Shown here one piece after another: positions 1,134 to 23,716 of a stretch of 25,129 nucleotides of DNA. The stretch is taken from the IMG/VR virus record IMGVR_UViG_2706794666_000002; one strand, written 5' to 3'. This DNA is from a virus. Its lineage: Duplodnaviria; Heunggongvirae; Uroviricota; Caudoviricetes. Made by a program: the position numbers and the translations under genes. The notes under the pieces are model-generated. The model searched no databases. It saw nothing but the letters and a program-made list of their open reading frames with translations, and was not told where the DNA came from. How positions within the stretch are numbered: position 1 is the first letter of the stretch; every line of letters begins with the position of its first letter.

Positions 1134-1158
1134 CCGACAGGTTACGGGGCGGAAGGCG
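1134..1158. other. cosN (terminase nicking site); predicted 12-nt cohesive end at 1147..1158
   Basis: 1134..1146 (CCGACAGGTTACG) matches the lambda right terminus. The following 12 nt read GGGCGGAAGGCG, against lambda GGGCGGCGACCT as I recall it, and are followed by the lambda-like CGCGGGTTTTCGCTATTTATGA. Lies 189 nt upstream of nu1, as in lambda. Confidence 0.6.
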
Positions 1159-1335: not shown

Positions 1336-1855
1336 ATGGAAGTCAACAAAAAGCAGCTGGCTGACATTTTCGGTGCGAGTATCCGTACCATTCAGAACTG
1401 GCAGGAACAGGGAATGCCCGTTCTGCGAGGCGGTGGCAAGGGTAATGAGGTGCTTTATGACTCTGCCGCCGTTATAAGATGGTATGCCGAAAGGGATGCT
1501 GAAATTGAGAACGAAAAGCTGCGCCGGGAAGTTGAAGAACTGCGGCAGGCCAGCGAGACAGATCTCCAGCCAGGGACTATTGAGTACGAACGCCATCGAC
1601 TTACGCGTGCGCAGGCCGACGCACAGGAGCTGAAAAATGCCAGAGACTCCGCTGAAGTGGTGGAAACCGCATTCTGTACTTTCGTGCTGTCGCGGATCGC
1701 AGGTGAAATTGCCAGTATTCTCGACGGGATCCCCCTGTCGGTGCAGCGGCGTTTTCCGGAACTGGAAAACCGACATGTTGATTTCCTGAAACGGGATATC
1801 ATCAAAGCCATGAACAAAGCAGCCGCGCTGGATGAACTGATACCGGGGTTGCTGA

Positions 1856-1881
<26 letters not shown>
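1336..1881 (+). CDS. nu1: Terminase small subunit Nu1, 181 aa
   Basis: ORF 1336..1881. Protein MEVNKKQLADIFGASIRTIQNWQEQGMPVL... is near-identical to lambda Nu1 with its N-terminal winged helix-turn-helix. Overlaps the start of A by 26 nt, as in lambda. Confidence 0.95.
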
Positions 1882-5569
<3,688 letters not shown>

Positions 5570-20796: not shown

Positions 20797-20806
20797 TGGG
20801 GTGAAT

Positions 20807-23716
20807 ATGGCAGTAAAGATTTCAGGTGTACTGAAAGACGGCACAGGAAAACCGGTACAGAACTGCACAATCCAGCTGAAAGCAAAACGTAACAGCACCA
20901 CGGTGGTGGTGAACACGCTGGCCTCAGAAAATCCGGATGAAGCCGGGCGTTACAGCATGGACGTTGAGTACGGTCAGTACAGCGTTATTCTGTTGGTGGA
21001 AGGATTCCCGCCGTCACATGCCGGGACCATCACCGTGTATGAAGATTCCCGACCCGGTACGCTGAATGATTTTCTCGGTGCCATGACGGAGGATGATGCC
21101 CGTCCGGAGGCACTGCGCCGTTTTGAGCTGATGGTGGAAGAGGTGGCGCGTAACGCGTCCGCGGTGGCACAGAACACGGCAGCCGCGAAGAAATCAGCCA
21201 GCGATGCCAGCACATCAGCCCGTGAGGCGGCAACCCATGCGACTGATGCTGCAGATTCAGCACGTGCAGCCAGCACGTCAGCCGGACAGGCCGCTTCGTC
21301 GGCTCAGTCAGCGTCTTCCAGCGCAGGAACGGCATCAACAAAGGCCACTGAAGCCTCAAAAAGTGCTGCCGCTGCAGAGTCCTCAAAAAGCGCGGCGGCT
21401 ACCAGTGCCGGTGCGGCGAAAACGTTAGAAACGAATGCGGCAGCGTCACAACAATCAGCAGCCACTTCTGCATCCACCGCGACCACGAAAGCGTCAGAAG
21501 CTGCCACCTCAGCCCGGGATGCGTCGGCTTCAAAAGAGGCGGCAAAATCATCAGAAACNNNNNNNNNNNNNNNNNNNNNNNNNNNNNNNNNNNNNNNNNN
21601 NNNNNNNNNNNNNNNNNNNNNNNNNNNNNNNNNNNNNNNNNNNNNNNNNNNNNNNNNNNNNNNNNNNNNNNNNNNNNNNNNNNNNNNNNNNNNNNNNNNN
21701 NNNNNNNNNNNNNNNNNNNNNNNNNNNNNNNNNNNNNNNNNNNNNNNNNNNNNNNNNNNNNNNNNNNNNNNNNNNNNNNNNNNNNNNNNNNNNNNNNNNN
21801 NNNNNNNNNNNNNNNNNNNNNNNNNNGAGGCGACCAGACAGGCGTCAGCAGCGAAGGGCAGCGCCACGACGGCATCCACGAAGGCGACAGAGGCTGCTGG
21901 TAGTGCGACGGCAGCAGCTCAGAGCAAAAGTACGGCGGAATCTGCAGCAACGCGCGCTGAGACAGCGGCAAAACGGGCAGAGGATATTGCATCCGCCGTG
22001 GCGCTTGAGGATGCGAGCACGACGAAAAAGGGGATAGTACAGCTCAGTAGTGCGACTAACAGCACTTCCGAGTCACTGGCGGCAACACCAAAAGCCGTTA
22101 AGGCCGCGTATGACCTGGCTAACGGGAAATACACCGCACAGGATGCAACGACAGCACAGAAAGGGATAATCCAGCTAAGCAGCGCGACCAACAGCACGTC
22201 TGAAACGCTGGCGGCAACGCCAAAGGCAGTAAAAGCAGCCAATGACAATGCTGAGAAACGTCTGCAGAAAGATCAGAACGGTGCGGATATCCCTGGCAAA
22301 GACACCTTTACGAAAAATATTGGTGCCTGCCGTGCCTTCGGTGGGTCAGTAAGCACAACAACAGGAAACTGGACGACTGCACAGTTTATCGAGTGGCTGG
22401 ATTCTCAGGGAGCATTTAACCATCCATACTGGATGTGCAAGGGTTCCTGGTCTTATGGCAATAATAAAATCATTACTGATACTGGCTGCGGTAATATTCA
22501 TCTCGCCGGAGCTGTCATTGAAGTAATGGGGATAAAGTCAGCGATGACGATCCGCATTACCACTCCGACCACATCCAGCGGTGGCGGAACAACCAACGCC
22601 CAGTTTACCTATATTAATCACGGAACAGATTATTCACCTGGCTGGCGAAGGGACTATAACTCCAGAAATAAGCCAACGGCATCAGAGATCGGGGCGCTAC
22701 CGTCAGGTGGAACAGCAGTATCATCAGTTAATCTGGCTTCAAAAGGTCGGGTAGCCGCGCTGACAGACAATACGCAGGGGGCAGCAGGTCTTGAGTTATA
22801 CGAGGTGTATAACAACGGATATCCAACAGCGTATGGAAATATCATTCACCTGAAAGGGATGACAGCCGTTGGCGAAGGTGAGTTACTCATCGGCTGGAGT
22901 GGTACAAGCGGTGCTCATGCTCCGGCATTTATTCGTTCACGACGGGATACGACCGACGCAAACTGGTCGCCGTGGGCGCAGCTTTACACCTCGGCTCATC
23001 CTCCTGCAGAGTTTTATCCAGTCGGTGCACCAATCCCGTGGCCATCAGATACCGTTCCGTCTGGTTATGCCCTGATGCAGGGGCAGACTTTTGACAAATC
23101 TGCTTACCCGAAACTTGCAGCCGCTTATCCGTCAGGCGTGATCCCTGATATGCGTGGCTGGACGATTAAGGGCAAGCCCGCCAGTGGTCGTGCCGTATTG
23201 TCTCAGGAACAGGATGGCATTAAATCGCACACCCACAGCGCCAGCGCATCCAGTACGGATTTGGGGACGAAAACCACATCGTCGTTTGATTACGGCACTA
23301 AATCCACGAATAACACCGGGGCGCATACGCACAGTCTGAGCGGCTCTACAAGTTCAGCTGGGGCCCACCAACATAGTCAGACTGGGCCCAGAACGAATAG
23401 CGGGAGTCAACCTACTGGAATGTTTCCGGCAGGGAGTACTCAAGTTAGCGGGACTAATCAGGTTGGTATCAGTGGCTCATTAACCAGTGGCACCTCCCAA
23501 TGGGTAGGTAAATCATCTTCAGAAGGAAACCATACACACTCACTGTCCGGCACAGCAGCATCTGCGGGTGCACACGCGCATACTGTCGGTATTGGTGCTC
23601 ATACGCACTCTGTTGCGATTGGTTCACATGGACACACCATCACCGTTAACGCTGCTGGTAACGCGGAAAACACCGTCAAAAACATCGCATTTAACTATAT
23701 TGTGAGGCTCGCATAA
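20807..23716 (+). CDS. stf: Side tail fibre protein Stf (about 969 aa as written; contains a 268-nt N run)
   Basis: N-terminus [60 protein letters not shown] and C-terminus ...[31 protein letters not shown] match lambda Stf. The frame is continuous across the N run. The central about 230 residues are not lambda-like. Confidence 0.9.
21559..21826. other. Run of 268 undetermined bases (N) inside stf
   Basis: Directly visible. Falls inside the Ala/Ser/Thr-rich low-complexity part of Stf. Confidence 1.
22027..22240 (+). repeat. Two imperfect direct copies (about 82 nt each, about 132 nt apart) encoding the phage tail-fibre repeat motif
   Basis: 22027..22108 encodes [30 protein letters not shown]. 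22159..22240 encodes [30 protein letters not shown]. Confidence 0.75.

Follow-up and report, generated by a model that had tools for sequence, protein, structure and literature searches.

Variation of cosN and the cos site of the window

The cosN site of lambda-related phages is defined as 12 + 2 + 2 bp (PMC9026076) and its two halves behave differently. Changes in the left half are severe, and both this half and the CG pair outside each nick are conserved (PMC4669245), while changes at bp 7-12 have a minimal effect on cos cleavage (PMC4669245, citing Xu and Feiss 1991); this left/right asymmetry depends on cosB proximity (PMC4669245). Natural variants of the right half are described in N15 and phiD326 (positions 9 and 12) and in Gifsy-1 (positions 8, 9 and 11) (PMC4669245). 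The N15 left end, read directly from its record, is GGGCGGCGTCCG, and the end of mEp213/LLS is GGGCGGCGCGCT (PMC12315714). The lambda 12-mer is GGGCGGCGACCT, the annotated cos site of the DE3/lambda record, and the records of phages 434 and 21, whose first base is that of the physical left end, open with GGGCGGCGACCT.

The window, which is the whole stretch of 25,129 nucleotides analysed here (IMG/VR record IMGVR_UViG_2706794666_000002), shows CCGACAGGTTACG at 1134-1146, GGGCGGAAGGCG at 1147-1158 and CGCGGGTTTTCGCTATTTATGA from 1159 onward. The 32-base core has one copy in the window and none in 100 shuffles. The predicted 12-nt 5' cohesive end (1147-1158, + strand), placed by gap-free alignment to the annotated DE3/lambda, 434 and 21 ends, contains the invariant left half GGGCGG and a variant right half, AAGGCG (1153-1158, + strand), where lambda has CGACCT. 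The changes are at positions 7, 8, 9, 10 and 12 (window 1153-1156 and 1158), and positions 1-6 and the C at position 11 are as in lambda. The end is thus different at five of 12 positions from the one of lambda, 434 and 21, and at positions 7, 8, 9 and 10 from the N15/phiD326 type. Outside the right half, the window and lambda differ by 5.1% over 255 aligned bases (261-base alignment); at this rate, five differences in six bases have P ~ 2e-6, or ~5e-4 corrected for all windows of the stretch, so the cluster is more than chance. A simple 6-bp inversion of CGACCT was rejected, since its reverse complement, AGGTCG, equals AAGGCG at only four of six positions.

Like the ends of N15/phiD326, Gifsy-1 and mEp213/LLS, the window end has all its changes within positions 7-12 and keeps the left half and the flanking CG; it has G at position 12 in common with N15 and G at position 10 in common with mEp213. 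Because the published variation follows the same rule, the window allele adds to the natural right-half alleles of a subsite known to be polymorphic, with more changes (five) than the published examples compared (two or three); tolerance has been published for point changes and for the N15 allele with its two changes, as against five changes here (PMC4669245). N15 has a single-R cosB, whereas the window allele is on a full lambda cosB with a lambda Nu1. The phage literature searched for GGGCGGAAGGCG, which excludes the 2017 cosN survey (Vahanian et al., Virology 509:140), does not contain this 12-mer.

The sequences around the cohesive end are arranged as in phage 434. The cosQ heptamer GGGTCCT, the packaging-termination subsite (1117-1123, + strand), equals the annotated cosQ of 434 and lies ~24-30 bp to the left of the predicted nick in the top strand, within a segment (1083-1146) identical at 64/64 bases to the 434 right physical end. 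According to the alignments to lambda, 434 and 21, cosN spans 1145-1160, with the 12-bp cohesive end and a conserved CG outside each predicted nick: ACG, GGGCGGAAGGCG and CG follow one another at 1144-1160, with GGGCGG intact and both flanking CG intact and 12 bp apart. The same alignments predict the nicks at 1146/1147 in the top strand and at 1158/1159 in the bottom strand. To the right, 260 bases align gap-free with the 434 left end at 97% identity, with the Nu1 start at the same offset, and contain the cosB elements R3-I1-R2-R1 at lambda spacing from cosN: the predicted small-terminase binding site R3, AGGCGTTTCCGTTCTT (1196-1211, + strand; annotated at 50-65 in the 434 left end); the predicted IHF site I1 (1220-1232, + strand; equivalent to 434 bases 74-86); the inverted R box R2 (1254-1269, - strand; 434 bases 108-123), whose reverse complement, TGTCGTTTCCTTTCTT, matches R1; and R1, TGTCGTTTCCTTTCTC (1297-1312, + strand; 434 bases 151-166).

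The terminase genes are directly downstream of cos, as in the lambda family. The ORF at 1336-1881 (+ strand) encodes Nu1, the small terminase subunit, of 181 aa, whose relatives are annotated as terminase small subunit, and A, encoding the large subunit, occupies 1856-3788 (+ strand) as two ORFs (1856-3442 and 3123-3788) around a masked N run at 3140-3394. These ORFs are out of frame because the 255-base N run does not preserve length, and a frameshift or pseudogene in A was therefore rejected as an artefact of the mask; an intact 641-aa gpA homologue is present in APEC E14033. A second masked N run (21559-21826, 268 bases) is inside a side-tail-fibre-sized ORF (20801-23716). The ORFs in the rest of the window downstream of A are lambda-like in size and order, and are taken to be head and tail genes. 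Just upstream of cos, and judging by annotated relatives, there are two genes on the - strand, which encode a DUF1398 protein (246-671) and a YlcI/YnfO-family protein (714-947); the right-arm end upstream of cos varies widely among carriers of the same cos.

The window therefore shares with lambda and 434 the cosQ, the cosQ-cosN spacer, the cosN left half, the flanking CG, the R3 spacing, the R3-I1-R2-R1 order and the adjoining Nu1 and A, and differs from them in that its predicted ends are complementary to lambda ends over GGGCGG only. The cosB and the Nu1 N-terminus align with those of lambda and 434 and not with those of phage 21. The preliminary description of this DNA had reported a cos site with lambda-like flanks and a five-base substitution clustered within positions 7-12. 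The alignments to lambda, 434 and 21 bear out both flanks and cluster, the lambda 12 nt given there agree with the DE3/lambda annotation and with the starts of the 434 and 21 records, and the cosQ, cosN and cosB layout next to Nu1 and A is that of a cos site. On this evidence 1117-1312 is a complete lambda-type cos site, and not a fragment, directly upstream of Nu1 and A in a lambda-like Escherichia prophage, and it is probable that it is a functional site with a natural right-half allele, which needs no adapted terminase and was spread by recombination. The masking of gpA residues ~429-513 in the window copy weighs against this reading.

Distribution and probable exchange of the AAGGCG allele

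The exact variant site is found in 155 of 5,426 complete E. coli genomes (~3%), at 166 places, 16 of which are on roughly 46-kb plasmid records; the comparison base comprises the 3,480 complete E. coli genomes with some match to the 91-bp cos stretch. The site is also present in 78 IMG/VR contigs, in 31 metagenome contigs and in Escherichia sp. E1V33, and two deposited phages carry the allele, PhiR46_1 and YDC107_1. PhiR46_1 has intact Nu1 and A and is presumably viable, judging from the host field of its record (ECOR13); a literature search for PhiR46_1 and the PhiR phages found no describing paper. The allele occurs on at least 38 distinct haplotypes (-30 to +135) and is a common minor allele in Escherichia, no oddity of one phage. 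The exact 91-bp stretch of the window has no perfect match in the 5,426 complete E. coli genomes because of a separate A-to-C change at window 1181, which is the only private-looking feature of the window and is common to ten fetched IMG/VR loci. Among the records searched, no phage record begins with the variant 12-mer, and neither IMG/VR nor metagenome contigs have a terminus at the predicted nick.

A scan of IMG/VR with the right half left as NNNNNN gives 120 sites: 116 with CGACCT, three with AAGGCG and one with CGACCG. The five changes always occur together, as an unbroken block in all variant loci examined; the same scan shows no intermediates with two to four changes between CGACCT and AAGGCG, only rare single-change CGACCT alleles. 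A later scan, restricted to one left-flank type, found CAGGCG, which is one change from AAGGCG (position 7) and four from CGACCT. The rare right-half alleles from these further scans are AGACCT (L003 and L198), TGACCT (L195 and L197), CGACCG (L080), CGACCC (L201), CAGACT (L204 and L206-L208), CAGGCG (L243), GAGCGT (L242 and L246) and the N15-type CGTCCG. AGACCT and CGACCG each contain one of the five changes of the window allele.

Over the first 3 kb, the closest relative among the complete genomes is strain PSS-07 (L210), which is 99.15% identical and has CGACCT as right half. Eleven of its 26 differences from the window are within 1153-1243, between the cosN right half and the cosB I1, which corresponds to a divergence of 12% in these 91 bases versus 0.5% elsewhere. 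This contrast indicates a short recombination patch and not five in-place mutations, and the arrival of the allele in this lineage looks, from these sequences, like such a patch at cos. The allele is joined to unrelated sequences upstream of cosQ, and its linkage is moderate on both sides (r2 ~0.55 at +71 and +97, and 0.40 at -10); the only strongly linked DNA sites, +71 and +97, are both non-coding and in cosB. Linkage to the cosB side alone, which would implicate nick-translation repair of mismatched ends, was rejected given the r2 of 0.40 at -10.

Three other groups of elements carry AAGGCG. The first contains N15-like linear plasmid prophages: PhiR46_1 (L192), YDC107_1 (L009) and the 16 places on ~46-kb plasmid records. 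They show telL/telR, ParA/ParB and a large primase, together with a full lambda-type cosB, Nu1, A and lambda head and tail genes, and have the variant end and not the GGGCGGCGTCCG of N15. The second contains 21-like loci, L212 (2560-3348) and 16 similar IMG/VR loci, so that the 21-like cosB family of IMG/VR carries AAGGCG in 17 of 18 contigs. Their small subunit is 21-like at the N-terminus and lambda-like at the C-terminus, and in their cosQ region one base is deleted (GGGTCC-TTCC) and the spacer, GGTGGGGTGGCCTGCCACG, is unrelated. An origin of the allele in phage 21 was rejected, since phage 21 itself has CGACCT; phage 21 and IdasGreatGrand, which carry CGACCT, differ in this from the window, whose cosB is lambda-type. 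The third contains the satellite-like loci L072 (2060-6254), L135, L163 and L170, with a capsid-E-like gene, a gpD-like gene, AlpA, a lambda-like cosQ/cosN without lambda R boxes, a Nu1-family gene with only 35% identity to Nu1, and Abi_C; their right-flank type is also seen with CGACCT. In having a lambda-like cosQ/cosN and a Nu1-family gene just downstream, their layout appears to resemble the cos-rpp arrangement of E. coli PICIs (PMC9026076); the window differs from these in containing a full phage structural region and is not a satellite.

Under the preferred reading, AAGGCG would be a natural allele of a part of cosN read only loosely by terminase, and recombination would have carried it between cos regions of the lambda, 21, satellite and N15-like-plasmid types. 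For annotation, the lambda 12-mer alone is insufficient for finding lambda-type cos sites or the termini of prophage-derived phages, as ~3% of complete E. coli genomes have the alternative end. The importance of this is modest.

Predicted pairing of the ends

In packaging, Nu1 bound at R3 and R2 would position gpA on cosN, and gpA would place one nick behind ACG in the top strand (1146/1147) and the other 12 bp further on in the bottom strand (1158/1159). Virion DNA would then have the 5' overhangs GGGCGGAAGGCG and its complement, which would re-anneal with each other on injection. The two ends of a phage are cut from a single duplex site, so that every cosN allele is compatible with itself and only hybrid chromosomes would be affected. 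Duplex energies computed with DNA nearest-neighbour parameters are -19.0 kcal/mol for lambda with lambda and -18.6 kcal/mol for variant with variant (all 12 pairs in each case), about -15 kcal/mol for lambda with N15 (10 of 12 pairs, with mismatches at 9 and 12) and about -9.5 kcal/mol for variant with lambda, in which only the six GGGCGG pairs are formed. The two-mismatch lambda/N15 end pair is viable, with a yield about fourfold lower (PMC4669245). Poor cyclisation would be expected of a hybrid chromosome that combines a variant end with a lambda-type end, as would low viability of recombinants, or of products of tandem-prophage packaging, whose two ends differ in type. Lambda cos oligonucleotides and the cosmid and packaging-extract tools that rely on end annealing would mismatch these phages.

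This predicted incompatibility could itself be what selection maintains, with the allele kept as a cohesive-end incompatibility group that limits hybrid chromosomes or guards against the targeting of lambda ends. Consistent with this are the halved cross-pairing energy, the presence of the allele in lambda-type, 21-like, satellite-like and N15-like-plasmid cos regions, and the unbiased scan without intermediates of two to four changes, although CAGGCG appears in the later restricted scan. However, the pattern is also explained by recombination together with the neutral drift of a half-site that is not constrained, the frequency is low (about 3% of genomes), and a moderate two-sided linkage (r2 up to ~0.55) is as expected for an old neutral allele. 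No defence system is known that reads cos ends. Selection of this kind is unlikely, and it is similarly doubtful that the lambda supercluster has in GGGCGGAAGGCG an old second type of cohesive end, moved between these cos regions at cos itself and kept since unlike ends make hybrid chromosomes inviable. If the incompatibility reading is true, there would be packaging-level incompatibility between co-resident elements.

Nick register and terminase beside both alleles

The variant right half creates CGCGCG across the predicted bottom-strand nick, which makes the register of this nick less self-evident than in lambda, and a shifted nick, with an overhang of 10 or 14 nt for instance, is conceivable. 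On the sequence only (AAGGCGCGCGGG), GCG/CGCG replaces CCT/CGCG, with three tandem CG steps, and the CG step repeated here is the conserved flanking feature (PMC4669245). Nevertheless, the spacing to R3 and to the top-strand nick is the same as in lambda, and C11, the partner of G2, is retained, so a displaced nick is quite improbable and a 12-nt overhang, as in the functional lambda-type site preferred here, is the better prediction.

The lambda 16-bp cosN has five symmetric pairs, of which the variant cosN retains G2:C11 and both flanking CG pairs; it loses G6:C7 and G3:C10 and gains C4:G9. The loss of two pairs could point to a switch in nicking specificity that requires a co-adapted large terminase, and the suppressor mutations of cosN G2C/C11G in gpA might suggest a co-adapted large terminase. 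However, terminase does not covary with the allele. Among the loci with full-length genes, the gpA of a variant locus (L143) and that of a lambda-type locus (L079) are identical, most other variant-linked gpA proteins are 1-5 of 641 residues from a lambda-type-linked gpA, and four Nu1 proteins are common to both classes. A search for a terminase residue segregating with the allele found none, with top residue-frequency differences of 0.33 for gpA and 0.15 for Nu1. The stretch of gpA residues 486-520, which covers the suppressor positions 509 and 515, shows no difference among the five proteins compared, of which three are variant-linked and two lambda-type-linked. The allele is also beside 21-like and satellite-type small-subunit genes. 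In addition, no cosN specificity is found between lambda and N15-hybrid terminases (PMC4669245). A switch in specificity is therefore very unlikely, slightly more so than a displaced nick, and no sign was found that the allele needs an adapted terminase.

These results bear differently on the consequences drawn in the preliminary description. The poor annealing to lambda ends agrees with the prediction of GGGCGG pairs only (-9.5 versus -19.0 kcal/mol), and the cosN symmetry does differ from that of lambda; the altered recognition by gpA is not supported, as an identical gpA and four identical Nu1 are beside both alleles and the published effect of changes at bp 7-12 on cos cleavage is minimal (PMC4669245). 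The window site provides a natural test case, a five-change allele beside an unchanged terminase, for the idea that Nu1 positions the cosB-proximal half of cosN and that gpA does not read this half.

A sequencing or assembly error, or a private mutation in the non-functional cos of a decaying prophage, to which the absence of a perfect 91-bp match in the 5,426 genomes and the masked N runs of the window could point, is scarcely credible, since that absence is due to the A-to-C change at 1181, common to ten IMG/VR loci, and the 12-mer and its flanks are exact in the 155 genomes, 78 IMG/VR contigs and 31 metagenome contigs, on 38 haplotypes and adjoining full-length Nu1 and A. The exact lambda-type cos with lambda flanks is also present in assemblies of Raphidiopsis brookii D9 (L186), Aeromicrobium sp. 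(L187) and Archangium violaceum (L188), and in an Alicyclobacillus fastidiosus plasmid (L189), which are most simply explained as contamination of these assemblies with lambda or cosmid DNA.
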